Shown here: positions 18,971-43,028 of the stretch, piece after piece | How positions within the stretch are numbered: position 1 is the first letter of the stretch | Layout: the number at the start of each line of letters is the position of its first letter | NCBI GenBank assembly: GCA_965206595.1 | Contig: OZ242214.1 | Location: forward strand, 3,424,001-3,488,000 | Direction: 5' to 3' | DNA length: 64,000 nucleotides | From: Candidatus Latescibacterota bacterium | GTDB lineage: Bacteria > Latescibacterota > UBA2968 > UBA8231 | Translations under genes and position numbers: made by a program | Notes under the pieces: model-generated | The model's database searches: none | Told to the model about the DNA's origin: nothing | Seen by the model: only the letters and a program-made list of their open reading frames with translations

Positions 18971-20083
18971 ATGAATGAAAAGCCGATTCGCTTCGGCATC
19001 ATCGGCGCGGTGCGCCGCGGCGGCAGCTTCGCCAACGGCCTTCAGGCCAACCCGGCCGCGGCCATCACCGCGCTCTGCGACATCGCCGAAGAGGAGCTTG
19101 CCGAGACCGCGTCCGGTCTCGGCGTCGAGCGGACCTTCACCGACGCCGAGGCGATGCTCGACGCCGGGCTCATCGACGCCGTGGTGATCGGCACCCCGAT
19201 GCCGCTCCACGCGCCCCAGGCGGTCATGGCCCTCGAGCGCGGCATCCACGTCCTCAGCGAGGTTACCGCCGGGGTCTCCCTGGAGGAGTGCGAGGGGCTC
19301 GTGCGCGCCGCCCGGCGCAGCAGCGCGGTCTACATGATGGGGGAGAATTTCACCTACATGAAGCCGAACGTCATCGTCCGGGAGATCGCTGTCCGCGGCC
19401 TGTTCGGCGACCTCTACTACGCCGAGGGGGCCTACATACACGAGCTCAAGCAGCTCAACGAGATCACCCGCTGGCGGCGGCGCTGGCAGACCGGCGTCAA
19501 CGCCTGCACCTATCCCACCCACAGCCTCGGTCCGGTGCTGCAGTGGTTCGCCCCGCACCGGGTGGTTTCGGTCTGCGCGGTCGGCAGCGGCCACCACCAC
19601 CGCGACCCGCGCGGCGATCAGTACGAGATGGAGGACTCCGTCACCATGATGTGCCGCCTGTCGAACGGCGGCCTCGCGCACATCCGGGTCGACATGCTCT
19701 CCGACCGGCCGCACAACATGACCCACTACGCCCTGCAGGGGACCGACGGCTCCTACGAGTCATCCGACGGGTTCAGGGGAGTCGGCAAAATCTGGCTGCG
19801 CAGCCGCAGCGAGACCCCCGTCTGGGAAGCCCTCGAGGACCTCGAGGAGGAGTTCCTGCCGGAGTTCTGGAAGCATCCCCCCGAAGAGGCGGTCCGGGCC
19901 GGACACGGCGGCGGCGACTACTGGCAGGTCCAGGACTTCGTCACCGCGGTCCGGGAGGGGAGCGAGCCCCCCATCGGCATCGATCAGGCGATGGACATGA
20001 CCCTGCCGGGCCTGGTGAGCCAGCAGTCGATCGCCGCGGGCTCCATCTGGGTCGACGTCCCGGATTCCCGGGACTGGAAATAG
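18971..20083 (+). CDS. Gfo/Idh/MocA family oxidoreductase
   Basis: 'IRFGIIG', 'DAVVIGTP..LH', 'HVLSEV', 'GHGGGDY'. Confidence 0.9.
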   Translation: MNEKPIRFGIIGAVRRGGSFANGLQANPAAAITALCDIAEEELAETASGLGVERTFTDAEAMLDAGLIDAVVIGTPMPLHAPQAVMALERGIHVLSEVTAGVSLEECEGLVRAARRSSAVYMMGENFTYMKPNVIVREIAVRGLFGDLYYAEGAYIHELKQLNEITRWRRRWQTGVNACTYPTHSLGPVLQWFAPHRVVSVCAVGSGHHHRDPRGDQYEMEDSVTMMCRLSNGGLAHIRVDMLSDRPHNMTHYALQGTDGSYESSDGFRGVGKIWLRSRSETPVWEALEDLEEEFLPEFWKHPPEEAVRAGHGGGDYWQVQDFVTAVREGSEPPIGIDQAMDMTLPGLVSQQSIAAGSIWVDVPDSRDWK

Positions 20084-20296
20084 GCATCCCAAACAGTTGA
20101 TGACGGTCGGAGAGGGGGGGTTCTGAGGCGGCAGGGGGAGGCCGATATACGCCGCGCGGCAGGAGGGCGGTACAGCCGCAGTTAGACCCCGTGAGAAAGG
20201 GTTTTACGAAAAAGGGAGATGGGATGTCTTGCCCTTACCCTCAAATGAAGGCCACTCCAAAATCGAAGTAAGGGTTTTCATCCCATCTCCCGATAC

Positions 20297-20334
20297 AAAA
20301 GGGACGGAGGGGGTAATCTGCCTCCCCTCCGTCC
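20297..20334 (-). terminator. Intrinsic terminator of the FN3 gene
   Basis: 11-bp stem GGACGGAGGGG/CCCCTCCGTCC followed by CTTTT on the minus strand, 8 nt after the stop. Confidence 0.75.
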
Positions 20335-23300
20335 GGTACCAACTACTTGAGCAACAGCATCTTTTTGACCTTACCAAAGTCTCCTGCCTGCAAGCGGTAC
20401 AGGTAGATCCCCGAAGACACCGCTTGGCCGCGGTCGTTGGTCGCGTCCCACGTGAAGGCATAACGACCTGCACTCTGACGCCCGGCCACCAGGGTTCGCA
20501 CCGCCTGGCCGAGTGCATTGTAGATAACCAGGTCCACATCCGACGCCCGGGGAAGCGCATATTTGATCGTGGTCTCCGGGTTGAACGGGTTCGGGTAGTT
20601 GAACGACAAGGCGTACGTCTCGGGCAGGGTCTCCAACTCCACCGGAGCCGGCAACACCATGTCGTTGACGGCAAAGGCCCCGTCGCGAACCTGGCCCTCG
20701 GTGATCTGGATGAAGCCGGTTTCAAACTCCCTCCGAGCACGCAGGACCAGATCCACCGCCACCGGGCCTTCGGACACGGGGTCCCCGTAGGCGACGATGG
20801 CACGTTTCCCGTCCTCTACGGCCAGCACCTGCGGCGCGGCCAGAGGCCCCTCGCCGAGGCGGTTGTCCGTTGCCACGGCGCGAACCAGCTCCAGCTCCTC
20901 GGCTCGGAACTCAAGCAGGAAGCCGAACCCCTTGAGCAGACCGAAGTCGCTCAGGTGCACGGTCAGGACGAACTCCTCGCCGACCCGCGGCAACGGGACG
21001 CCCCCCTGGAAATCCAGCCGCGTTTCCGGGTTGCCACCCGAGCGCAACGGGGTCGTCTTGGCCACGGCCCCGGTCTGACGACCGAAGTTCTCGGCGAAGA
21101 CGGTGAGCCCGTCGGCGTCCACGGCCTCCTTCGAGGCCAGATCGAACGCCGGTTCCCACTGGGCATTCGCTGCCGTGCTGCCGTAGTGATCGGCGAGGTG
21201 GAAGTAGTCGTCGAACCCGACGCGCTCATCGGCGCCGAACAAGCCCTGGATGGCCTGTCCGTTGACGTCTACAACCTCGTTGCGGATGGCCATGGCCGAG
21301 CGTTCCTCCGAGGCGGTCTCGTTGTCCTCATCGAAGGCGGCCACCGTGTAGGTGAACCGCTCCCCGTTGGCGACCGTCGAATCGACGAAGGCGGTGTCGC
21401 CGGCCACGACCGTCCCGAGGAGGGCAAACCTCTCCTCGGTTTCGGCCGGCTTGCGGTAGACGCGATAGCCCAACACCCCGGGGACCCGGTCAGAGACCAC
21501 CGGACCGATCGCACCGGTGACCCGGCGGCTGACCTGCTGGTCGGACGGCGAGGCCGTCCACGACAGGACAATGCGGCCCCCGTCGTCGTCGGCCGCGTCG
21601 AGCGCCTGGAAAGACGCCACCGCCTCCGGGGCGGTGTTGTCCACGGCGCGTACCGGCTCGGCCCGGGCAACCGAGGACCGCAGGATCACATCGGGCTGTT
21701 GCGGTTGAGGTTCCACCGACATCGGTGTGGTCACCTGGGCATCTCCGCCCAGGGTCAGCTCCAGGGAGATGCAGCCGCCCGGATTGAGTGGAATGCTGTT
21801 CCACTGGCCTACCACACTGCCGCCGGCGTCGAGGACGCGGGCCCGGTAAAAACCGCCGCGGCTGACCTCATTGGAGACGGTCAGCCTCACCTGCCCACTC
21901 GCGTCGGCTTCTCCCTTCCAGAGGAAATTGGACGAGCGCAGCTCGAACAGACCCCGGTACACCTCGACGGTCAGGCCGGCGGCCTGCTCGCCCAGGACCA
22001 CGATCCGGACACAACTCTCATCCTCCATGTCCTCGTCCATGTCCTCGTCGGCGGGGACCCCGCCGCGCTGGGCAACAATGCCCCAGCCGGTGGACACCGT
22101 GTCGAGCGTCGCCACCACGGCGCGGCCCTCCATGGCGTCCGGATCTGCACTCACCCAGGCCCACTCGGTGCCCGGCGAGGCGGCCTCGGCCTGCTCGCGG
22201 AAAATGCGGTAGCCATCCAGGATCGAATGATCCACCGACAGATCCCACGTCAGCAGAAGGAATCCGCCCTCGTCGTCGGGGTGGTCGGCTGCCACCAGTT
22301 GGTCGGGCGCATCCAGAGGACGCACGACAACCGACTCGGACTGGCTCAGGGTGCGTTGGGCATCCCGGAGGGTCACAACCAGCTCCTCCGCAGGCGAATC
22401 GGAGCGCACCCAGAACCGCCCCATACCCTCACTCAAGCGCACCGACGGCGACAAACCGACCCCTTCCTGATTGGCCGAAAGGCTCAGCGAAAGGTCGTCG
22501 CCGACGCGCACGTTGCCGTAGCGGTCGAGCACCGAGACGTCGCCCCAGTACAGCTGGCTCACCGTCAGGGTGTCGGGCAGGCCGGTGACCCGGAGACGGT
22601 CACGGACCTCCGGGTTGTAGACGATCCGGGGCGCCAGGGTGGCTACCGGCTCGCCTTCAGCATCCACAAGGGCCACCGACAGGGTGTCGATGCCCACCGT
22701 GTCCCTCAACACCACGGTGCGTTGCCCCTCCGACCAGGACTCGGCATCCAGCTGGGCCCGGCCTTCACCCTGATCGGTTACGCCTTGCCCGCTCAAGGTG
22801 ACTCCCCGACCTCCGGTTACCTGGAGGACATAGGAGACGGACTCGGTAACCGACAGGGTCAGGGTCACTTCCTGGCCGGCGTCCAGATGCGCGGCCGGGT
22901 CCAGACCCAGGCCCCCCTGCTGCGGCTGGCTGCCTCGCGGCTGCTGCGCATTGGCGCCGCGGGCTTCCCCTTTCAGGACACCCACGATCCTGTTGGGGGA
23001 CTGAACCGACACTACCACCGTGTCCGGCATCGAGCTCAGTTTACCGTCGCTGACCGTCAGGGAGAAGGAGACGACCCCCGGCGCGGTGGCCGTGAACGAG
23101 GGACCAATCGTCGCCAAATCGCTCAACGTCACCGAAGCCCCCGAAATCTGGCTCCAGGCGTATTCCAGCGAGCCCTTCTCCGGGTCCTGGCTGCCGCTGC
23201 CGTCCAGCGTCACCTCGGCTCCGGTGGTCACCGACTGGTCCGGGCCCGAATCGGCCGTCGGGGCCTCGTTGGGCATGGTCGGCTGAGGGGTACCGGTGAG

Positions 23301-24047
23301 CTCGTCGGAGGACGGGCCGTCGCCGTGCTCGTTGAAAGCGAGCACCCGCACCGTGTATTCGGTCTCGTGACTCAGGTCCGGGATGGTATGGAATATCCAC
23401 GTGAGCGGGCCGGTAGCGGTGTCTTCGCGGGCCGAGGCATACGACTCCGACCCGGATTTCCACTGCACTTTGTACCCGGTCACCGATCCCTTGTAGCCGG
23501 CTTTGGCCAGCGAGAGCCAGCGAACCTGAAGCCCGCCATCGACCGCATTCAGGCTGACATGGTTCACTATAGGCGGCGTCAAAACCGCAGGCGGTTTGGC
23601 GGCCGGGGGCTGCGTCGGCTGCGTGGGCTGCTGCGGCTGCGTGGGCTGCTGCCGAGGTGGCTGAGGCCGCGGCGTAGGCGCCCTCCGAGGAGTTCCCATA
23701 GCCTCTGAGGCCTCTCCCTTGAACTCATCCAAGGTAGCAGTCACTCGTACCATGTACTGTGTACCCGCTGTCAGGCTCGAAAGCGTGGTTCTCAGTCCGG
23801 AGGGGACCTCGCGGCTGCGGCTGGGATCCCAGGTCTGATCTCCCGACTTCCACTCGACCGTGTAGCCGGTGGCGTCAGGAACTGCGTCCCAGGATACCGT
23901 GAGGGCTCCTACGCTGGCAGCCGCCCGCACGTTGGCCACCTGACCCAGCGTCGGGCTGCCTGGTTTTTCTACTGAGGGCAGGCCGTCGAATGAAGCCACG
24001 ATAGCAATCACCTCCACCGTGTACTCGGTACCTGGCAGCAGATTCTT

Positions 24048-24437
24048 AATCGTATGACTTGTAGCGGTCGCCGGGTTCGGCGTGGCTTCGCGATTGTCCG
24101 TTGCGGCGTCATCGAACGTCTCCGATCCCGACTTCCACCGCACCTTATAGCTGTCGACCCCAGGAACCGCGGTCCACGATACCACGAGCTGCCGCGGGCC
24201 GGGAACCACCTCCACGTTCGCCACCTGGGGCGCCTGATCCATCGGCGTTCCGTAGGCCGGATCTGATGGCTCGGGGCCTTCCCCGGCCACGATAGCGATC
24301 ACCCGCACCGTGTACTCGGTGTCCGTCGTCAGAGGCCGAATCGTATGACTTGTTGCGGTCGCCGGGCTCGGCGTGGCTTCGCGATTGTCCGTTGCGGCGT
24401 CATCGAACGTCTCCGATCCCGACTTCCACTGCACCTT
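24048..24437. repeat. Near-identical 99-bp internal repeats in adjacent FN3 units (24048-24146 and 24339-24437)
   Basis: 3 mismatches in 99 bp by manual alignment. Confidence 0.85.
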
Positions 24438-27400
24438 GTAGCCGGTGGCCCCGGTGACCGTGACCGGGTCCCATGATACCGCCAACTGCTGCGGGCCGGG
24501 AGTCACCACCACGTTCGCTACCTGGCCCACAGCGAGTTCCTTCGGAGTGCCTTCTGCTTCCACTGAGGGCGTTCCGTCGCCGCTCGCGTTGTAGGCGATC
24601 ACTCGCACCGTGTACTCGGTGGCCGCCGTCAGGTCCTCAATCGTATACCTCGTCCCCGTAATCTCCGAGACTTCGCGGTCGTCGGTTGCAGCATTATCGA
24701 ACGTCTCCTCCGACCCCAACTTCCACTGCACCTTGTATTCGTCCGCCCCGTCTACCTCGGGCCACGACAGCAGGAGCTTCTTCACGCCTTCCATCACCGT
24801 CACCGGCCCCGCCTGACCTGGCCTGGTCAGACCTGTGAGGGGGGGGTCGGAAGGCATGCCGTCGTCCTCTTCCGCGTTGTTGAGGTTGCTATGGTCCAAG
24901 GTGGCGATCACCTGCACGTCGTACTCGGTGGCCGGGTCCAGCCCCATAATCGTATATGGAGGTTCGGCCGGCCTGGCTTCGCGGTCAGTACCGAACGTCG
25001 GCTCCGACTCCTTCTTCCACTGCACCTTGTATCCCAAGGCCCCGTCGACCAGGTCCCAGGTAACCGTGAGCTGGCCCGGGGCTTCGGCCGTAACCGACCT
25101 CAAGGTCGGCATGCCCGGCAAGGGTGTGCCGCTATCCTCAGCGGGCGGTCCCTCGCCGCCGTCGTTTGAACCCGCAACCTGAACCGAGTACTGCGTGCCG
25201 GCCGTCAAACCCGGAATCGGATACTCCAGCTCAGAAATCCCCGTGGCTTCGCGTCGGTCCCTTGCCGCCGTATCGAACGTCTCCTCCGTCCCCGACTTCC
25301 ACCGCACGATATAGTCCTTGGCCCCGGCTGCCTCTTTCCACGTCACCACGAGCTCCCCGGCGCCGGGCTTCACCATCAAGTCCGCTACCGCGCCCGGCTG
25401 GGGCGTGGTTGACTTTGTATCTGAGGGCTCGCCCTCAACCCCATTGATTTCGGCGAAAACCTGCACAGAGTACTCGGCGCCCGAATCCATCATCATGCCC
25501 GCGCTGGCACTCAGAAAATCCTCTTGAAATACAACGGTTATTCTTCCAGAGGGCTCGGTAGTTGTATACTCGCCGGTAGAACCCTGAAGATCTCCAGGGT
25601 TAGTACCATCTACAGCTGCTATACAGCGCTTGTCACTGTACTCCTGCGACCCCGACTTCCACTGCACCAAGTACTTTACTGTGGCACTGCTGGCCCCCTG
25701 CTCGGCAAGCCTCGGCCATTTTACCGTGAGCGTCGCCTCGCCGGGCTCCACATCCACCCCCGTCACCTGGGCGGGTACCGGCGTGCCGGAACCCCCCCTA
25801 GCGTCAGCATGCGAGGCTTTTCCGGTGCCCGCCGGCCGAGCAGAAAAACCTTCCGCAGCATCCATAACAGCAGGGAAATCACTCGCCTCGCCTACGGCGT
25901 ACACCCGAACCATGTGCTCGGTGCCAGGAACCAGGTTTTCAATCGTATACGTTCTCGAACTGCTGCTCACCCGGCGAGTGTTACCCGTCGTCTCGGGGTC
26001 ATCGGCCGACTGAGGGTCGTAAGCATCATTTCCTGATTTCCACTGCACATGGTAGTGTGTGGCATCCGAGACAGCGTTCCACGATACCTCGAGCTCCTCC
26101 ACACCGGGCGTCACCTCCACCATCGCCACCCGGGTGGCTTCCCGGGTCGGCGCAGTGATTTCCAATGGTGGATCTGAGGGGAGTCCATTGCCCCCGGCGT
26201 TGGTGGCGTACACCCGTACATGGACGTCACTACTCAGAGAGGGAAACGTGTAAGAGGTAGGAGACGAAGGCACATTGTCCTTTTCACTCCGGTCCCACAC
26301 CGACTGCAATTGCGGCTTCCACTCCACTATGTATTCATCCACCACCTCATCCTCATTCGTGGGCGCATTCCACGTTATTGTGACCTCCCCCTCACCGGGG
26401 CCAACGGTTACATCGCCCGGAGAAGAAGGAAATACAACTTGGGATGGCTTCGTCGTGCCGGTGGCTGGGTCTGAGGGAGTGCCATCGTCGGCGGCGGTAT
26501 TGTCGCTGGTGGGATCGTTCGTGGCGATCACCCTCACCATGTACTCGGTGCCCGCCGTCAGAGCACCATCCCCACTCGGGATCCCATCCCCAATCGTAAG
26601 GCTCGTTTCGGACGTTGTTTCTTGGCGGTCCGCTGCGAAGTTATCGGTCCCCGACTTCCACTGCACCTTGTAGCCAGTGGGAGCCCGGTCCGGCGCGGTC
26701 CACGATATCTGGAGCCTGCCCCCATCCGGCGGATTCGTCACCGTTGGCTCCCCCACCTGAGCCGGCTTAGGCGTTCCCATGGCCTCAACAGTACCAAGGT
26801 CTACAACGTTTGGAACGTCCGCCTCCGTGTCCTCCATGGGCGTTCTGTCGCGGTTCGCGTTCTCGGCGACCACCCGCACCGTGTACTGGGTGCCCGGGTC
26901 CAGAGGCTCAATCGTATAACAGGCTTCCTCCACTACAGCTTGGCGAGTCGAGCCGTAGTCCTGATTACCCGACTTCCATTGCACCACGTATTTCGCCGCC
27001 CCCACGACCTCTTCCGCGTCCTCATCATCGAGCAGGTCCGGGTCCCACACTACATCCAGCTTATTCGCCCCGGCGGTCACCGCCTCGTCAATTTCGGACA
27101 ATGGGATGTGTGCCGGCGCCGGCATGCCTGATACTTCATCGGCTTCGCCGTCGCCGCCGATTTCGTCCGTGTCCTTCTCGCTCGTGGCGACCACCCGCAC
27201 CGTGTACTCCTTGCGCGCATCCAGACCATCAAGGGTGGATGACGCAAAATTTGCTTTCTCGATCGTATAACTAGTCAGTGGTGGGTCACCTGTCACCAGG
27301 AATTCGCGGTGGGGGTCGTTCGCTTCCTCCGGGTCGTTCTTGAGGTAGTCCGGCTCGTCTTCCGACTTCCACTGTACCTTGTAACTCTCCGCCCCCAGGA

Positions 27401-29740
27401 CCGGGTTCCACACAACCCTAAGTTTCTCCTCCCAGGAAGCCACCTTCACGCCCATCACCTTGGCCGGCAAAAGGCGTTGGGAGACGCCCTCCGACGCAGT
27501 CCCCTTGACGTCCTTCGCGTTTTCAGCAGTCACCCGCACCCGGTAATCGGTGCCCACCTTCAACCCCGTCCGAATCGCATACTCCGTCCCAGACTGCGCC
27601 GGGGACTTACTGATTTTATTATCCGTATCTGGATCCGGGAAACTTGCTTCTTCAGCGATCCACTCCACCACGTATTTGGTGGCCCCAAGTGCCTCCTTCC
27701 AACTTACCACGAACTGCTCCACGCTGGGCACCACCTTCACTTCCATCACCTGGGCCGGAGTCGGCGTGCCTGTTGCGGTCGTTGAGGCCTCGCCGTCGCC
27801 GCCTTGGTTGGTGGCGATCACCCGCACCGTGTACTCGGCACCCGTCAGGTCGGGTATTTCATGGGTAAAGGAGGAGCTGCCGTCGTCATCCACCTCTGCT
27901 TCGCGTTCGTCGGTTGCCGCATTCTCGAAGCTCTTCGACCCCGACTTCCACTGGACCTTGTAGCCGGTGGCCCCCTCTACCTCGTTCCACGAGACGGTGA
28001 GCATCCCTCCTTCGCCGGCAGTCACGGGGGTGGCCCCGAGCGTCACCTGATCCGGCCTGGTCGTGCTCCTGACCGCCTCTGAGGGTTCGCCGTCGTCGCC
28101 GGCCAGCACCGCCACCCTGTACCCGGTGCCCCACTCCAGAACATCATCATCCGTAGCATCATCATCCGTCTTGGCGCGAATCCTATAACTCCTCCCAGCA
28201 ATACCCGAGGCTTCACCTATTTGGTCAGTCTCAGCTGCTTCGGCGTATGTCGCGGTGGTTCCCGTCCACCACTGCACCGTATAGCTCGTGGCCCCCAGGA
28301 CCGGGTCCCAGTTCACCCCAAGCTCGAGGCCGGAGCCGGAAGTCACCGTCACGCCCGTCACCTGGCCGACCTTCGGGGGTTGAGGGATTACAGGTCGCTC
28401 TGTTGAGGCCTGCCCAGGGCCCCCATCGCTTGAGGCGTACACCCGCACCCAGTACTGGGTGCCTACATCCTCAATCGGAATCCTCAAAGGATAGGTTGCC
28501 GTGTACAGTTCCGTCTCAATTCTCTGCTGGGTCGGCGGAATATCCGAGAACTGTTCCGAGTCCTTCCTCCACTCCACCGTGTACTCGTTGGCTCCCGGGA
28601 CCTCCGCCCACCATACCCGGAGCTCCTTCGGGCCGTCCGTCACGTTGATGGCGGGGAGGTTCACCTGGCCCGGAATTGGTGTTTCGGAGACCCCATCGTC
28701 CTCTTCATGCGAGGGCGTGCCGTCGCCCCCGTCGCCGGGGTCAGCGGCTTGGCCGCCATCGTTCGAGGCGATCACCCGCACCGTGTACTCCTTGTCCGCC
28801 GACAAAGAAGCCTGACCATCCCCAATCGTTAGACTCGTTCCAGACCTTGTTTCTTCTTCGCGGTCCTCTGCTGGGTTTGGCGGCTCAGACGCAGCCTCGA
28901 ACTCCTCCGACTCCGACCTCCACTGCACCTTGTACTTCGTTGCCCCGGGGACCCCCGTCCACCGTACCGTGAGCTGATTCGCCTCCTCATTGTTCACCGA
29001 CACGCTCGCCGGATTCACTTGGCCCGGTGCCGGCAGGTTGGCCGTATCCTCGTCCGAGAAATCTCCGTTGCCGTGGTCGTTTATTGCCCTCACCTGCACC
29101 GTGTACTGGCTGGCCGCCGATAGCTCGTCAATGTCCAAACTGGTTTCAGGTGCGTCCTCCTCCTGTCGGCGTTCCTGGTCGTACCGCTGCGTCCCTGTCT
29201 TCCACTCCACTTGGTATTTCGTGGCACCGTCTACCGGATCCCACGATACCTCAAGAGTATTCGGCTTCGACTTCACCGTCACATTCATCACTCGAGCCGG
29301 TGCCGGCGTGGCCATTTCCTCCCCCGAGGGCATTCCGAGCTGGGCTCCGCCAGGATAGCCACCATTTCTGGCGGTCACCCGCACGGTGTACTCGGTGTCG
29401 CCGCTCAGGCCATCCTCATCTGAAGCATCTGAACCAATTTCATACTCATATCGGGCAGGCTCAGGATCGGCCGTTAGCTCCAGGCGGTAACGCGAACTGG
29501 CAGAGGCAGACTCCTCCTTGTACTTCTGCACCCCCGACTTCCACTCCACTACGTAGTGCGTGGCCCCAGCTACCTTGTCCCACTCTACGGTGAGCTTCGC
29601 CGAGCCGGAAGTCAGCACCACATTCTCCACCTTGCCCGGATACGGCCGGAGGGGGGCCGCCTGCCCGTAGGGGGTGACGTAGTAGTCGCCGTTCTGGTCC
29701 TTGGCGAAAACCTGCACCTCGTACTCCTTGTCTCCCCCTA

Positions 29741-30907
29741 GTGTCATGTCGTGTAATTAACTGTACAAACAATTGAAAGTGCCGTAGGTTTCCCTTATCC
29801 CCCTTCTGAAAGGAGAGACCTATGGTGACGGGGCGTCCATTAACGCCGTTAGAGCTGAGTCCGTCGGACCGGGAACGACTGGAATCGATGGCCAAATCAC
29901 GAAGTCTTCCCCACGGATTGGTGCGGCGAGCCGAGATGGTGCTGCTGGCCGCCGATGGCTGGCCCAATGAAGCGGTCGCTTCCGCGGTGGGTGTGACGCG
30001 AGCTACGGTGGGCAAATGGCGCCGGCGTTTTCTCGACAACGGACTCAATGGCTTGTATGATGAACTACGTTCAGGGGCGCCGCGATCGATCACGGACGAG
30101 CAGGTAGCCGAGGTGGTATACAAGACCCTGAAGACCAAGCCCAAAGACGAAACACAGTGGTCGGTGCGCTCCATGGGCGAAGAAACCGGCCTGACCAAGG
30201 ACGCGGTTCATCGCATTTGGCGCACGTATGGTTTGCAGCCCCATCGACACAAGCGCTTCAAGCTTTCCACCGATCCTTTCTTTGTCGACAAAGTACGGGA
30301 TATCGTCGGCTTGTACCTGAATCCCCCCGAGCACGCCTTGGTGCTGTGCGTGGACGAGAAGAGCCAGATCCAGGCGTTGGAACGAAGTCAGCCCATGCTG
30401 CCCCTGGGACTGGGATACGTGGAAGGGATTACGCACGACTACAAGCGGCACGGCACCACCACCCTGTTTGCCGCCCTGGACATCGCCACCGGGGAAGTGA
30501 TGACCCAGTGCAAGCCCCGTCATCGTCACCAGGAGTTCCTCCAGTTCCTGCGCCACATCGAGGCCAACGTGCCCGCTGACCTCGATATTCATCTCGTCGT
30601 CGACAACTACGCCACGCATAAGCATGCCAAGGTCAAGCGATGGCTGGCACGGCGTCCCCGATTTCACCTTCACTACACTCCCACGTATGCTTCGTGGCTC
30701 AATCAGGTGGAGATCTGGTTCAATATCCTCACCCGCCAGGCGGTTCGGCGCGATTCGTTCCGCAAGGTGTCGGAGCTCATCGAGCGAATCGAACGCTACA
30801 CGGCCAAATGGAACGCCAACGCACACCCTTTCGTCTGGACGGCTACGGCGGATTCCATCCTCGCCAAAATCAAGAGACTTTGTGAACGAATCTCTGCGAC
30901 AGGACAC
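29741..30907 (+). mobile_element. IS630-family insertion sequence, copy C (1167 bp, apparently intact)
   Basis: TA|GTGTCATGTCG...CGACAGGACAC|TA; inserted in a CTAG target. Confidence 0.95.
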
Positions 30908-30910
30908 TAG
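29822..30910 (+). CDS. IS630 transposase (DD35E intact)
   Basis: 'VDEKS','VDNYATH','NQVEIWF'; the TAG stop is formed by the duplicated target. Confidence 0.93.
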
Positions 30911-32484
30911 GTCCCCAATCTCATATGTGGTTTCGGTTAGGTCCGTGATGTCGTGGGATTCCCACTCCTTAGGGTCCCCCGAATCGACTTTCTCCCTCCA
31001 CTCCACTTGGTATCCCACGGCCTCCCAACTTTCCGGAAGAGAATCCCACGATACCGTGAGCTTCGCCGAGCCGGGCGTTACCATAACGTTGGCAGGGCCG
31101 GTCTTCGTGCTAGGCTCCGCTCGGACACCGCCGGCGAACAACGACACGGCCAGTCCGGCGAGCATTCCTACGCGCAGCCATTTCATGGATTCTTGGTGGC
31201 AATTATTCATCGAGGCTTCTTCTCCCTTGGGAAACCGCGTTTCAGGCAGTTTTCGGATGGATCTGGCAGTTTCGATATGATCGGATATCGCTAGTAATCC
31301 GGGCCCCTGGAGGCGTCCATTTCCGACCCGGGGGACTTGGAAGGAACCGGGCCGCATGTGGCCAAATAGGCCATTTCCCGGGGGTCAATTCCGGGGGTGG
31401 GCAGGTCCCATAACTGGCGGGCGTCGGCCTCGGGCACCCTGGCGTCGATGAAGCTGCCGAAGGCGCGGTGCTCGGGTCGCCAGGTCGGCGCGGGCCAGTT
31501 CGGAGAGGTCGACCCGGATCTCGGGCCCGACCCTGGCCTGCCGTTCGACCTCCAGGCGGCGAGGCAACCCGGGGGGGGGCGGCGGCGTGGAAGTGGGCGC
31601 CAGCCGTCGCGGGTGTCGACGGCCTCAGTAACGCCGCAAACGGCCAGCAGGGTCCGCCCAGGCGGCGGTGCGCTGGGAAACCAGGGGATCGGACGGATGG
31701 GCGCAGAGGCGTTGCGGTACGCCGTGGACCCCGGAAGGGTCGCGGAGATACCACAGAATGGTCAGGCTGGGGGCCTTCCGGGCTTAACGCAGGAACCGGG
31801 TTTTGGCCGCTTTATCGTCGCCCTCGAAAGGTTGGGCCCTACCCACCAGTGGCCGCCCTGGCCGAGGACTTCGCTGCTGAGGTGGGGGCCTTCAGGCGCG
31901 AGGCCAGTTCGCCTGATATGGTTGCCCCCGGGCGGCGGTCGCCCTCTTCAGGGGGTTCGCCCCGGGTCCGATTCCCAGGTCAGGAGAACCAATACCAGCC
32001 GGCCGGCACGGTGGGCCGGGGCCCTGTCGGTCGAGGCCGGGTTGGGGCACGTCGACCTGGTCGCATGCCAGGGTTGGCCAGGCGCCTACCACGTCCCATT
32101 CGGCGGACACCAGAACGAGGCGGCCGTCGACCACCTCTCAGGATGTGGAGGGACTCTCCGTTTCTCACCAGGTCGCGGCCGATGCGGGCGAGCACCGCCG
32201 GGGGTGGATATCGGCGACGGCGGGGGCGAATCCCGGGGCGGGATCAATCGAGGGCCGATCCGACGTTTACCGTATGGCCGGGGGGAGGAAACCGTCGTTT
32301 AAGGCGCCGTTCTCGTCAGCGAATCGGCCAGACTGTGTCCGGCCCCGTTCCGAAATTGAAGATCATGAGGGCGAAAATGGGAAACAACTTGCGTCGCTCA
32401 GACTGCTCTCCCTGGGTCTGCCTGTCGTTTGGGCGAAAAAAGTGCTTGACATATCCGGGAAGATTTTCGAACATTTGCGGATGA

Positions 32485-32518
32485 TAGACTCGGTTAATAG
32501 ATTGTTTAACCGATCTTA
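32485..32518. other. Candidate lox-like recombination site (or regulator operator)
   Basis: TAGACTCGGTTAA-TAGATTGT-TTAACCGATCTTA: 13-bp arms (10/13 inverted match, inner 8 perfect) around an asymmetric 8-bp spacer, in an AT-rich island. Confidence 0.4.
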
Positions 32519-32926
32519 TAAGAATCATTTTATAACATTTGATAACAATTATGGTCGCGTTGAATTATAAGATCGCGCACTCCCGCCCGGGGGGGCGCTA
32601 CTTCGCCACAAGTTGGATTTCGAGGCGCTGGATACCGATGACAACAAGGTCGACTGGCACCTCTGCGGCAACCGCTGGCGGCGATTCGAGACCGTGCCTT
32701 TTCGGCCCCAATCTTCCAGGGAACTGAACGGTTTCCTTTCGAGTTAATTAAATAGCTTGGGTCGCTTTCACTAAGCGCTGGGGTATGCCAGCCCGTACCG
32801 GTACTCGGTACGGGAAACAACCCCGGTCCAGGAAGCATGAAAATGCACCTTATTTCACCTCATTTTTCTGTCAGTTGACGGAGTACACCTCAGGTCGTCC
32901 TAGAGGACAGCTTATCGGCACATGAA

Positions 32927-33865
32927 ATGAGCACCCACACCACACTAGTCGCCGTCAAACAAGCGCCGTCCCTCACTGTCTCAAGTCGGGCCCTCGAGCT
33001 CGTCCAGGCCAGCATTTCCGCCAACACCAAGCGGGCTTATACGGCCGCGCTGGCGAGGTTCGACAAAGCGAGCGGCGACAACCCCGTCACCGATACCGTC
33101 GTTGCCAACTACCTCGCCGCCCTGTACGATGCCGAGAAGTCGCCGGCGACGTGCTCCCAGGTAGTCGCTGCGCTCAAGTTCCGGGCCAAGCTGCAGGACC
33201 TTCCACCGCCGGTAGGTCCCCGAACCAACCGGGTTCTTGCCGGGATCCGGCGCCAGGGGCGAGGAAGAGGACGAGGTCAGGCGAGCGGCGTGAACTTCTC
33301 GCAAGCCGAGGCCGCCGCGGCTATCGCCTCTGGCGAAGGGTCCATCCAGGGGCGGCGCGACGCGGCGATCATTTCGGTCATGTCGGACGGCTTGCTGCGC
33401 GTCTCCGAGCTGGTAGCTCTCCAGGTCGACGATCTCGCTTTCGAACCGGATGGCGGCCGCGTTACCATCCGCCACTCGAAGACGGACCAGGAAGGGATCG
33501 GAGTCGTGCTCTATCTGGGTCCCCCTACCGTGGCCAGGGTCAAGGCGTGGCTGGAAGCGGCCGAGATTACCTGCGGGCCGCTATTTCGCCGCCTCCATCG
33601 AGGCGGAAATGTCGGGGGCGAGAAGGAACTAAGCACCGCAAGCGTCCGACAGATCATCAAACGCCGATGCACGGCCATTGGCGTGAAGGGGGTTTCCGGT
33701 CACTCGCTGCGCGTCGGCGGCGCTGAGTCGCTCGCTGCCGGCGGTGCTTCGCTTGCCGAAATGCAGACAGCCGGCCGCTGGCGGTCGCCGACGATGCCAG
33801 GTCACTATGCGCGGGGACAGCTTGCTGCTCGTGGGGCCGTAGCTCGCATTCGCTACCGCAGGTGA
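32927..33865 (+). CDS. Cre-like tyrosine recombinase
   Basis: SAM-like N-terminus 'ISANTKRAY'; catalytic R (LLRVSEL), K (HSKTDQ), HxxR (GHSLRVG), W (GRW) and Y (HYAR). Confidence 0.9.
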   Translation: MSTHTTLVAVKQAPSLTVSSRALELVQASISANTKRAYTAALARFDKASGDNPVTDTVVANYLAALYDAEKSPATCSQVVAALKFRAKLQDLPPPVGPRTNRVLAGIRRQGRGRGRGQASGVNFSQAEAAAAIASGEGSIQGRRDAAIISVMSDGLLRVSELVALQVDDLAFEPDGGRVTIRHSKTDQEGIGVVLYLGPPTVARVKAWLEAAEITCGPLFRRLHRGGNVGGEKELSTASVRQIIKRRCTAIGVKGVSGHSLRVGGAESLAAGGASLAEMQTAGRWRSPTMPGHYARGQLAARGAVARIRYRR

Positions 33866-33887
33866 AGGGAATCCCGGACTTGATATT

Positions 33888-34571
33888 TCATCGTGGTAGC
33901 GGTCGGGGGCTCCGCGCGATTCTGGGTTCAGAAAGTGTGGGTATTTCGCGCAGGGTGGTCAGCCAGCACTTCTCGGCCCCTTCCGGGGCGCCGATCCCTT
34001 CCGGCAGCGACACGTCGGAAGGGTCGCCGGGGTAGGTCTCGATGGGCCGGGCGTCGGCGAGATCGACTTGGCCCTCCCGGTTGACGTCCCCCAGCAGGCC
34101 CCCGGAGGCACCTTCCCGCGAGGCAGGGAGGACAGCGGCTGGACCTGGATCTCGACCTGCCCGCCTCCCATTCGGAAAGCCGGGTCGACCCAGGGGACCA
34201 GCGCCGGACCCGAGACCGTCAGCCCGTAGACCGGACCCTCGCCGATAACCTAAGCCCCCGCCCGGGAGCGGGTCCCACTCCCGCCGTCCTGCCTGAGGGC
34301 TCCACCGCGCCTTCGAAACCCCGTGGAGTGGGGCAACTCCATTCCAGGGATCCGCCGCCCCGCCGGAACCGGCTCCACCCCCGGAGCCCACCGCCCCGTC
34401 CAGCAGCACCATCGACCGCGGCAGCGCCGTCAGCGGCAGCGCGAAATACCCGCTCTCATCGGTGGTGGTGCGTAGCGAGCTGCCCAGGTCCGCCCTGTCG
34501 AACAGCCGCACCCGGGGCCCGACCGCCCATGATCCAACCAACCCGATGATGCAGATAATAGCTGTTTTCAT
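33888..34571 (-). pseudogene. Decayed secreted protein gene (signal peptide, carboxypeptidase-regulatory-like and dockerin remnants)
   Basis: MKTAIICIIGLVGS..., 'VRLFD...TTTDESGYFALPL', 'LLGDVNREGQVDLADA', separated by scrambled sequence. Confidence 0.55.
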
Positions 34572-34885
34572 CCTTGGGGCTTTGGGTAGAAACCCATGCG
34601 GAGCAATACTCCAATGAGATCAAAATACCCTCCAAGAGGACAGGGGATGTCCGTTGGTCCAAACGAGAAAAAGTTTTTGCCGGTCCCGTCGCCGGGGGGT
34701 AAACCGAGTCGGGGACATTTTGGTTTAGGGTCGGACCGCAGCACCCTCACACCTCCACTTCCGCCGCAACGAAATCACTGCTCAGGAATCACTGATCATC
34801 CTGATCGACAGCCCATGTCTGCGGTGGCAGGAGTCCTCACGCCGCAGGGGACCGGTCTGCCGCAGGGTGTCACCCTTTTCTCCGG

Positions 34886-35764
34886 TTAGATGTATCCCGC
34901 GGAGGTGAGCATGTCGATCTCGTCGCTCAGCCGTTCGAGCACGTGATCGGGGTAGATGGACATGCGCTGGAAGGGCAGGTTGTCGCGTCCGATCGCCGGC
35001 ATGTAGTTGAAGAACACCGAGCGCCGGATCGAGTCGTTGGCGACGGGATAGGCGTTGTGGGTCATCCCCTCCGAGAAGATGACGACGTCCCCGGGTGCGG
35101 CCAGCACCGGCACCGCCATCGGGTTCCTGCCCGCGTCCGTCATGTCGAAGGGACAGGGGAAGTTGGCCTTGTGGCTCCCCGGGATCGCGGCGAAGGGGCC
35201 GTTCTCCACGCGCGTCATGTCGGACAGGATCACCACGCTCTTGGTGCTCTTGCAGGCGAACCGCTGCTGCGTGTGGTCGTAGGCGTAGTAGATGTCGCGG
35301 TCGAGCGGAAAGCCGCCGTTGTGGAGCCCGCCCCCCGCAACAGGCCCCACCTTTTCGATGTAGTAGGTCGCCGAGATGTAGACCGGGCCGCCTGCGAGTT
35401 CGAAGTGGATGGACTTCATGACCGGATCGCGCACGATGCGGTCGAACCGGGCGGTGCCGCACAGGGCATGGTCGACGCGCCCGATGCCGCCGGTCTCCGG
35501 GTTGGGGCGCCGGTCGGGTCGGTGCTCTCCCTTCCAGAACGGGTGCTCCGGGTCGGACATCGCCGGGGCCAGGAAATAGCTGGCGACCCCGAGCCGGGTG
35601 TAGGTCTCGTAGTCGACGGGGATCGCCTGAAGCTCGTCGATGCCGGCGTGGAACTCCGCCACCGCCTCCTCGTCGTAGTGGCCTTTCAGGACGATGTAGC
35701 CCCTCAAGTCGAACTCGTACTTCTGCTCCGGGGTCAGGGCGAAAGCGGAATCAGTGGAGGTCAT
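34886..35764 (-). CDS. PhyH-family dioxygenase
   Basis: 'QKYEFDLRGYIVL', 'LHNGG', 'IPGSHKAN', 'GDVVIFSEGMTH'. Confidence 0.85.
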   Translation of the reverse strand: MTSTDSAFALTPEQKYEFDLRGYIVLKGHYDEEAVAEFHAGIDELQAIPVDYETYTRLGVASYFLAPAMSDPEHPFWKGEHRPDRRPNPETGGIGRVDHALCGTARFDRIVRDPVMKSIHFELAGGPVYISATYYIEKVGPVAGGGLHNGGFPLDRDIYYAYDHTQQRFACKSTKSVVILSDMTRVENGPFAAIPGSHKANFPCPFDMTDAGRNPMAVPVLAAPGDVVIFSEGMTHNAYPVANDSIRRSVFFNYMPAIGRDNLPFQRMSIYPDHVLERLSDEIDMLTSAGYI

Positions 35765-35883
35765 TTTCCGGGTGCTCCTCTTTGCGGCCCGGGCCGGCGA
35801 CGGGGTTCGGCCGGTCGCGGCCCAGGGTCAGGAGGTGCAGCGGTTTGCCCTTCGCGTCAGGATCGTCGGCACGCGGCGCTGCC

Positions 35884-37167
35884 CTACAGGTCGTATCCTG
35901 CTTCGCCGTGCTCGTTCAGATCGAGTCCACTGGTCTCGGTATCCTCATCTACTCGCAGGCCGATGGCCAGGTCGATGACCTTGAGAATCACAAACGAGAC
36001 GATCAGGGTATAAACCGCTGCGCCGACAGCAGCAAAAGCCTGGATACCCAACTGTTTTCCCATGTTCAGGCCCTCGACGGTGCCGCCCAGGGAGGTCGAG
36101 GCGAAGAAGGACACCAGCAGAACCCCGACCAGGCCGCCGAAGCCGTGAACCCCCACTACGTCGAGCGCGTCGTCGTACCCGCAGGTGCGCTTGAGCCAGG
36201 TGGCGGCCCAATAGGCTACGAGACCGGAGCACAGGCCGATGGCAAAGGCGCCGAGCGGCCCCACTGTGCCCGAGGCCGGGGTAATGGCCGCCAGTCCCGC
36301 GATGGCGCCGGTGGCAAAACCGAGCGCACTTGGTTTCCCGTTTCTGATCCAATCGAGAAAAATCCAGGTCAGCGCTGCGACGCTGGGGGAGATCTGGGTG
36401 ACCACGACTGCCATGGCGGCCTGCCCGTTCGCCGCCAGGGCGCTGCCGCCATTGAAACCGAACCACCCAACCCAGAGCATGGCCGTGCCGACGAGGTTCA
36501 TGGTCATGTTGTGCGGGGGCATCGGCTGCTTGGGATAGCCTGCGCGCTTGCCGACGAGGATCGCCGCCACCAGGGCGGCCGCCCCCGCGGTGATGTGGAC
36601 GACGATGCCGCCGGCAAAGTCGAATACCCCCATGGCGCCCAGGTACCCGCCCTCTCCCCAGACCATGTGGGTGATGGGCAGATAAACCAGAACGCACCAC
36701 AGCCCGCTGAACCACAACACCGCCGAAAACTTCATGCGCTCGGCAAAGGCACCGACGATAAGCCCGGGAGTGATGATGGCGAACGTCATCTGGAAAACGA
36801 AGAAGAGCGGTTCGGGGATGGTGCCGGAAAGGCTGTCCGGGGAGACCCCGCTGAGAAAGACCTTGGACAGGCTGCCGATGAAGGGATTGCCGGCTGTAAA
36901 GGCCAGGCTGTATCCGAAAAGGGTCCATAAGACCGTGATCAGGGCGGCAATCCCGAAACAGTGCATATAGACCGAGAGCACGTTGCGCGTGCGCACCAAG
37001 CCGGCGTAGAACATGGCCAGGCCCGGTATCATCATGAAGAGAACCAGGCCGGTGGAAATCAGGATCCAGGCCGTGTCTCCGGTGTCGAGCTTGTCCTGGG
37101 CTGAAGCGGAATTCGGTGCCCAGACCAGCAACAGAGAGAGGATTCCCCACACTCTGCGAAACTTCAT
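35884..37167 (-). CDS. amtB: Ammonium transporter
   Basis: 'FQMTFAIITP', 'DFAGGIVVH', 'WVGWFGFNGGS', 'DDALDVVGVHG'; GGAGG RBS before ATG 37167. Confidence 0.95.
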   Translation of the reverse strand: MKFRRVWGILSLLLVWAPNSASAQDKLDTGDTAWILISTGLVLFMMIPGLAMFYAGLVRTRNVLSVYMHCFGIAALITVLWTLFGYSLAFTAGNPFIGSLSKVFLSGVSPDSLSGTIPEPLFFVFQMTFAIITPGLIVGAFAERMKFSAVLWFSGLWCVLVYLPITHMVWGEGGYLGAMGVFDFAGGIVVHITAGAAALVAAILVGKRAGYPKQPMPPHNMTMNLVGTAMLWVGWFGFNGGSALAANGQAAMAVVVTQISPSVAALTWIFLDWIRNGKPSALGFATGAIAGLAAITPASGTVGPLGAFAIGLCSGLVAYWAATWLKRTCGYDDALDVVGVHGFGGLVGVLLVSFFASTSLGGTVEGLNMGKQLGIQAFAAVGAAVYTLIVSFVILKVIDLAIGLRVDEDTETSGLDLNEHGEAGYDL

Positions 37168-42638: not shown

Positions 42639-43028
42639 ATGAGTTCGGAGAAATGCGCCATCCATGCTGGCAGGAGCCACCAGAACAGAGACCAACGCCG
42701 TCCGTTGGATCCGACCATATATAAACTTCCAGAAAGCAGTACCGGTGTAGGGGCAAAAAAGTGTGCCTACTGCGCGTATCTGCTTGGAATTAATGAGACC
42801 ATAAAATCGGTCGAAAAGGCGTTGGAGATTGGCCAATTTCCGAAAGGACGCGGAGGCGCCTTTCACAACAGAAGGCTTATGGAAGAGGCCATAAAAAGCT
42901 CGTTTCAGTTAGGCTTAGGAAACCAGGAAAGTTATAAAGAATACCTCGAAGAATTTGTAGACCAACATTTCCCCAACATGGGAGATGACGAACGGGAACA
43001 ATGGATCGATAAACACGAAACACCGTGA
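42639..43028 (+). CDS. Hypothetical protein with Cys/His cluster
   Basis: GGAGG RBS; 'CAIH...H...KCAYCAY'; low GC. Confidence 0.6.
   Translation: MSSEKCAIHAGRSHQNRDQRRPLDPTIYKLPESSTGVGAKKCAYCAYLLGINETIKSVEKALEIGQFPKGRGGAFHNRRLMEEAIKSSFQLGLGNQESYKEYLEEFVDQHFPNMGDDEREQWIDKHETP

Follow-up and report, generated by a model that had tools for sequence, protein, structure and literature searches.

A Cre-type tyrosine recombinase of a Candidatus Latescibacterota bacterium is preceded by a 13-8-13 lox-like site, the functional register of which is likely to be 32496-32529, judging from its conservation among related recombinase loci. By anatomy this is a Cre/lox arrangement, and thus a candidate new enzyme/site pair of a familiar type. 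On balance, and somewhat above even chances, the enzyme and site would represent a resolvase module from a satellite or plasmid-like element that became stranded and was passively co-duplicated with a giant adhesin gene. Positions refer to the window, i.e., the whole stretch of 64,000 nucleotides analyzed (contig OZ242214.1, 3,424,001 to 3,488,000); its genome (G000) is a single contig of 7.05 Mb that is 92.9% complete. The features are listed in Table 1.

Table 1. Features of the window and of one related locus, with strand and basis of assignment.
Feature	Position	Strand	Basis or remark
Giant fibronectin-III/PKD/FlgD-tail protein gene, main part	20343..29747	-	3134 aa open frame
Transposase interrupting the giant gene, IS630-type	29822..30910	+	DDE_3 and HTH; presumably IS630 family
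Giant fibronectin-III gene, 5' piece	30911..31186	-	92 codons; signal-peptide-like by eye
Portal-like pseudogene, frameshifted	31289..32250	-	Divergent from recombinase; sister-copy pieces match intact portal
Overlapping palindrome of the sequence-only reading	32485..32518		10/13 complementary; probably not the functional register
Family-conserved 13-8-13 lox-like site	32496..32529		Ungapped alignment with the sites of 14 relatives, arm pairing, close copies
Imperfect repeat	32506-32521 / 32530-32545		Possible accessory half-site
11-bp inverted repeat	32511-32521 / 32565-32575		Imperfect outside the window
IS66-family terminal repeat relic	32703..32739		17 of 21 matches listed cover the stretch; alignment
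IS3-type element end relic	32759..32893		Genome matches; contains hairpin 32792-32814
Cre-like tyrosine recombinase	32927..33865	+	312 aa, intact
Convergent ORF, multi-copy apparently secreted family	33888..34571	-	No Pfam or NCBIfam match
Head-packaging cluster and recombinase paralogue	L097 5057-12867 (G000:C1 about 1,038,000-1,045,900)

The Recombinase

An intact recombinase with an R-K-HxxR-W-Y signature had been claimed from the sequence alone, and all six catalytic residues are present: R158, K185, H259, R262, W285, and Y294 are identical across 11 aligned recombinase proteins (an alignment made without L010, L011, L012, L006, L017-L020, and L035). By alignment they match R173, K201, H289, R292, W315, and Y324 of Cre, the residues given for Cre-type enzymes in the available text of PMC10250229. 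Phage_integrase is the sole domain match of the protein in Pfam. A sequence search of the PDB returned Cre or its variant Tre in 17 of 17 matches (best E-value 1.8e-12), and a fold search with a weak model (pLDDT 57) placed Cre and Tre at the top listed ranks, above XerA. Scores against the XerC and XerD models of NCBIfam are far under the cut-offs. The protein has no extra arm-binding domain, its length is within the 300-400 aa range of Cre-type enzymes, and its nearest structure is Cre. As read from its sequence, it is a Cre-type tyrosine recombinase.

Four close copies of the recombinase have 89-98% protein identity to it, and G000 carries more paralogues with 51-68% identity, in addition to several fragments. 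By tblastn, distant relatives (all <60% identity) are present in 692 plasmid records vs. 2 phage records.

Register of the Lox-Like Site

A cognate 13-8-13 site upstream of the recombinase had been proposed at 32485-32518. The proposal of a site is supported, and a palindrome does exist at those positions, with inner arms that are perfect over 8 bp and 3 mismatches over the 13 arm positions; however, its register is probably wrong, and the likely site (hereafter the family register) lies 11 bp to the right. The latter consists of a left arm (32496-32508), a spacer (32509-32516), and a right arm (32517-32529), in which the window aligns gap-free to 13-8-13 palindromes located just upstream of related recombinases. 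In this alignment of the window and 14 relatives, T7, A13, T21, T22, and A28 are invariant, T7 and its partner A28 being kept in 15 of 15 rows, with positions counted from the outer end of the arm by assumption. According to the available text of PMC10250229, a T at position 7 is common to active Cre-type sites, as is a (G/T)-A-(T/G)-A motif close to the spacer. In the family register T7 is found in both arms and the motif in the right arm only of the window site, while the register at 32485-32518 has a C at position 7 and neither of the two features.

Pairing of the arms was compared between the registers. The pairing figures are inflated because the 10 outside alignment rows were picked for showing such a site and because the aligned sequences are related; with this limit, 72% of arm cells pair in the family register across 14 distinct rows (L017 and L020, which are 99-100% identical and from the same locus, being counted once), and in 9 of the 13 pairs both partners change. 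This level was reached by 0 of 500 shuffles, and slid controls gave 37-46%. The register at 32485-32518 has 51.8% paired, which was reached by 2 of 500 shuffles, and a one-base slide gave 47.2%. A shuffle figure of 0.03 for the 34-mer at 32485-32518 is unfair, since the tested pattern was derived from that site itself.

Among the five close copies, invariant arm positions number 22 of 26 in the family register vs. 16 of 26 in the other. The spacer of the family register takes three forms in these copies, and in the other register the left arm is invariant at 6 of 13 positions and the presumed spacer at 7 of 8. Complementary arm positions (of 13) in the five copies are 7, 7, 10, 10, and 7 in the family register, and 10, 8, 5, 7, and 10 at the position first proposed; in these copies the two registers are not distinguished by symmetry alone. 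In each of the four close copies, which have the upstream region in common with the window, an A replaces the T on which the perfect inner arms of 32485-32518 depend. These data suggest that the functional target is likely 32496-32529.

Palindromes of this kind extend to more distant relatives. AT-rich palindromes with an A-N6-T-type center lie shortly before the recombinase gene in L007, L009, L032, L017, and L018, and the same type is found at five (L078, L080, L082, L085, and L090) of the 12 metagenome loci inspected; upstream inspection did not extend to L077, L081, L083, L086, L093, and L094. In all, the 13-8-13 geometry is present in 5 of 5 close copies and in 10 of 27 distinct upstream regions of more distant relatives, with none in the other 17. 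Conservation of a site within 1 kb of homologous genes is seen in the family register; the register first proposed has no distant counterpart. A window-type pattern has 5 matches in 31 genomes, each upstream of a close recombinase homologue (control, 0). When the sites found earliest were combined into a degenerate pattern, a search at 2 mismatches recovered neither the five metagenome sites nor that of the window.

The window site is far from perfect. Published pairs were mined with a limit of 2 arm mismatches (available text of PMC10250229), which is a mining filter and not a biochemical rule; the window fails it in either register, and relatives such as L007 and L085 have 2 or fewer mismatches. 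The window site is among the least symmetric in the family (7 of 13 positions complementary, 6 mismatches) and over the published limit, so that it is possibly decaying.

Search for a Partner Site

The sequence-only reading had found no partner site in the window, and this holds for the whole 7.05-Mb genome. The 34-mer at 32485-32518 has no second occurrence there at up to 2 mismatches. Full-arm and arm-plus-spacer patterns, with at most 3 mismatches, gave nothing in G000 beyond the window's own site, and the only match of the family pattern in G000 is the site of the paralogue L032. A degenerate match at 42895-42925, considered as a second site, is not palindromic, does not have the spacer in common, and was taken as chance. 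Searches for hybrid half-sites in G000 and for a family-type site at the corresponding locus of a related genome (G002) found none. Among viral contigs, 16 pattern matches included no relative. The site of one relative, compared with phage sequences by BLAST, had chance-level matches only, and P1 was not returned.

Split reads at the site had been suggested as a test of activity. Assembled Logan contigs from four runs have neither a joint at the site among 15 of 41 joints listed nor a loose end there among 24 of 537 listed, a scope too small to demonstrate absence. Homology between the copies breaks about 1.2-1.4 kb off the site on both sides. The proposal that the recombinase inverts or excises secreted-protein loci is thus unsupported, since only one site, and not two compatible flanking ones, is found in G000 and the homology breaks lie away from it.

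Decayed Mobile-Element Context

It had also been stated that phage genes are absent from the vicinity. This is not confirmed, as the gene divergent from the recombinase appears to be a frameshifted portal-like gene, and the ends of IS66 and IS3-type elements lie close by. Two pieces from sister copies (85-86% identical) match the intact portal of G000 in order (E-values 2e-5 and 1e-4). Five other searches, among them those made with the piece from the window itself, lent no support to a portal, so that the identification of a portal-like relic is of moderate strength. The last codon of this pseudogene is the left edge of the near-identity between copies. In one sister copy (L005 1693-4899), a 1068-aa sigma-54-type activator replaces the relic between the adhesin promoter and the site.

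The terminal repeat of the IS66 relic is spread through G000, and an ORF beside one of its copies contains DDE_Tnp_IS66. An ORF adjoining one copy of the other relic contains rve and HTH_21, which we take to be the IS3 family. These two insertions account for the distance of the site from the start codon, which is about 400 bp here and far shorter in relatives. The hairpin at 32792-32814 described previously is present, but it is part of the IS3-type end.

The intact portal of G000 ends a neck-terminase-HNH-capsid-protease-portal cluster located directly beside another recombinase paralogue (L097), and this cluster is possibly a capsid-forming satellite. A 16-3-16 palindrome lies upstream of the L097 paralogue. 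Another relative belongs to an 82-kb contig, some genes of which look plasmid-like (labels assigned by eye). Three copies of a 58%-identical relative (L014-L016) lie on a 23-kb contig that consists of a repeated unit of 9.6 kb, probably a small circular replicon.

Linkage to a Giant Fibronectin-III Gene

The head-to-head arrangement of the recombinase with the adhesin gene was read correctly, but the true adhesin start is at 31186, and an IS630-type element breaks the gene after codon 92. Three genomes of the genus contain 8 giant fibronectin-III genes (1, 3, and 4). All 5 intact recombinase homologues (at least 89% identity) are head-to-head with such a gene, approximately 1.7-4.9 kb off and at different loci; a truncated sixth homologue is about 9 kb from another giant gene, and no recombinase of this kind lies near the remaining 2 of the 8. 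The association with secreted-protein loci that had been noticed in the window therefore holds across three genomes.

Near-identity between the copies extends from about 31289 to 5-30 bp beyond the recombinase stop, and the right flanks differ. The convergent ORF to the right looks truncated in comparison with a paralogue, with its stop near the right homology edge. In G002, the flanking genes of the window are syntenic and a 14.7-kb block is absent, with a gap of about 40 bp in its place (junction by eye); the G002 locus has 18.6 kb of other genes that are absent from the window. The absence of the block from the syntenic locus indicates that it was moved or gained. The edges of the moved block, as aligned, are not at the lox-like site. 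A guessed empty-site junction, based on a short motif common to both edges, had no match in any of 11 genomes.

Other elements were observed around the adhesin gene. A short palindrome with a 6-bp center (31271-31291) lies at the left cassette edge in the adhesin upstream region and is kept in four copies; a search found it beside these cassettes, in addition to three 3-mismatch matches, and it is a possible operator. A 13-bp inverted repeat with a conserved core (20214-20291) follows the stop of 8 of 8 aligned giant genes. It has no Rfam match, its covariation is weak on a rough alignment, and it is possibly a structured RNA or a mobile-end signal. Contigs in two runs join 29549-29555 to 31044-31045 with about 31 other letters between them (depth 2-5), which suggests variant 5' ends of the adhesin gene.

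Other Repeats and Promoter-Like Signals

The AT-rich island upstream of the recombinase gene is found where it had been placed. The 11-bp inverted repeat is also where it had been described and is perfect in the window, but its perfection is absent from the close copies: its counterpart in L002 is 91% matched, and it is not among the pairs listed for L003-L005 (2, 1, and 6 pairs, with 5 of 6 listed for the last). The imperfect repeat at 32506-32521 / 32530-32545 could, from its sequence, be an accessory half-site. A TTGACA at 32446 is present, but a consensus scan gave no matching -10 box. A leftward promoter-like match (32508-32481, 9/12) overlaps the window site, and in L007 and L018 a TATAAT, preceded at 17 bp by a -35-like hexamer, extends over both the left arm and the spacer. 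An Rfam scan of 19000-36000 gave no match.

Paralogues at Other Loci

One paralogue occupies the same place in three genomes (L032, L007, and L009), between leuS- and mutL-like genes as judged by eye. In L032 (G000:C1 1,834,918-1,836,005) it has a family lox-like site at 1424-1457 and a dif-like site at about 2486-2512. A dif-like 11-6-11 site follows this paralogue by about 100 bp in 2 of the 3 genomes, and the paralogue may lie beside chromosomal dif. L034 (G000:C1 1,347,500-1,349,450) contains tandem rearranged paralogue pieces, including a 652-aa frame with repeated N-terminal domains, and in L033 a similar N-terminal fragment follows the recombinase paralogue.

Comparison with Known Systems

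The closest known system is Cre/loxP of phage P1, which is the nearest solved structure by sequence and fold and is alike in the six catalytic residues and in the 13-8-13 geometry of its site, on which, by the available text of PMC8789052, Cre acts as a homotetramer. In contrast, the window recombinase is only about 20% identical to Cre, the arms of its site are far less symmetric, and the pair is a putative chromosomal relic beside an adhesin gene rather than part of a replicating phage-plasmid. To our eye, two relatives, L018 and L032, have arms that resemble those of loxP. The central A-N6-T geometry of the family sites presumably resembles that of dif; unlike XerCD/dif, however, the window pair has a single enzyme, which is not a Xer by NCBIfam, and the dif-like site of G000 is 1.6 Mb away. 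The TnpS/TnpT modules of Tn3-family transposons combine a Cre-like enzyme, a divergent partner gene, and an AT-rich multi-repeat region between them, a layout with some resemblance to that of the window, where the divergent gene, however, appears to be a broken portal-like one. A scan of 36 of the 207 ORFs in the window gave no Tn3 transposase. Vika, Nigri, Panto, Dre, VCre, and YR1-YR12 resemble the window pair in protein length (300-400 aa), in an 8-bp-spacer palindrome within 1 kb, and in T7, although the window site would fail the symmetry filter by which those authors mined their pairs (available text of PMC10250229). In the literature searched, no description of this recombinase family or of its fibronectin-III link was found, although the family may overlap with the about 500 candidate pairs tabulated in PMC10250229 (Supplementary Table S2).

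Origin and Role of the Module

The preferred explanation is that of a stranded resolvase. By analogy with Cre, two recombinase monomers would bind the 13-bp arms and make staggered cuts across the 8-bp spacer, and exchange would take place with a second site of matching spacer on another copy of the replicon. Cre itself separates dimers of P1, according to the available text of PMC8138268. One site and one recombinase gene would be the layout of a multimer-resolution module, acting on two copies of a circular replicon. Because resolution acts between replicon copies, no chromosomal partner site is expected, and with one chromosomal site only, the enzyme would neither excise nor invert. The module may have arrived with a phage-satellite or plasmid-like element that then decayed, leaving the broken portal-like gene, and the IS66 and IS3-type insertions would have displaced the site from the start codon. 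Once linked to the giant fibronectin-III gene, the relic would have shared in the duplication and relocation of that gene, and the breakpoints would lie outside the site. We infer binding, cleavage, the resolvase role, the origin, and the passive co-duplication. The intact reading frame in 5 of 5 copies, amid decay, could reflect a current function.

It is less probable, though still to be taken seriously, that the recombinase and site actively move or amplify the adhesin, with the block forming circles or tandems that the enzyme resolves or integrates. The consistent head-to-head linkage, the nearby truncated homologue, the differing right flanks, and the block missing from the syntenic G002 locus are all consistent with mobilization, as are the different spacers of three G001 copies, which would prevent cross-recombination. 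However, homology breaks away from the site, neither hybrid half-sites in G000 nor a family-type site at the G002 locus was found, the guessed junction is absent from 11 genomes, and 2 giant genes have no recombinase near. Segmental duplication and common descent account for the linkage, and the copies are not independent, since the three genomes belong to one genus. A narrower version, in which a satellite-derived Cre/lox module is kept to mobilize or amplify the 9.4-kb fibronectin-III gene as a block while spacers drift apart, is unlikely.

The remaining readings concern the site itself. It is rather improbable that it serves mainly as an operator through which the recombinase or another factor controls a promoter without productive recombination. 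The promoter-like matches over the sites of L007, L018, and the window agree with this role, as does the lack of a partner in G000, yet the combination of varying spacers with co-varying arms is that of crossover sites, the enzyme retains its catalytic residues, and the window site is separated from the gene by IS relics and has no -10 box of the L007/L018 type. There is little to recommend 32485-32518 as the true site or as an overlapping transcription-factor operator: it is 10/13 symmetric in the window and L005 and exceeds shuffles, but its left arm varies among the five copies more than its supposed spacer, distant relatives have no counterpart, T7 is missing, and a one-base slide pairs nearly as well (47.2 vs. 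51.8%). The least credible reading, slightly behind the last, makes the sites dif-like targets of host XerC/XerD, with the Cre-like gene as a passenger. Their central geometry, presumably common with dif, would fit, as would the dif-like 11-6-11 site that follows the paralogue L032 after about 100 bp. On the other hand, a dif-like pattern at 3 mismatches has no match at the window site, several family sites are near-symmetric with arms that change with the recombinase lineage, and the protein is far under the XerC/XerD cut-offs.

Significance

The family, from a phylum that has been poorly sampled, offers several candidate orthogonal Cre-type enzyme/site pairs that vary naturally in both arms and spacers. 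In a published screen of such candidates, 8 of 17 were active (available text of PMC10250229). L007, L017, and L085, which have more symmetric sites, are better candidates than the window's own pair. If the link to the adhesin is functional, a resolvase module would have been reused to spread adhesin genes.
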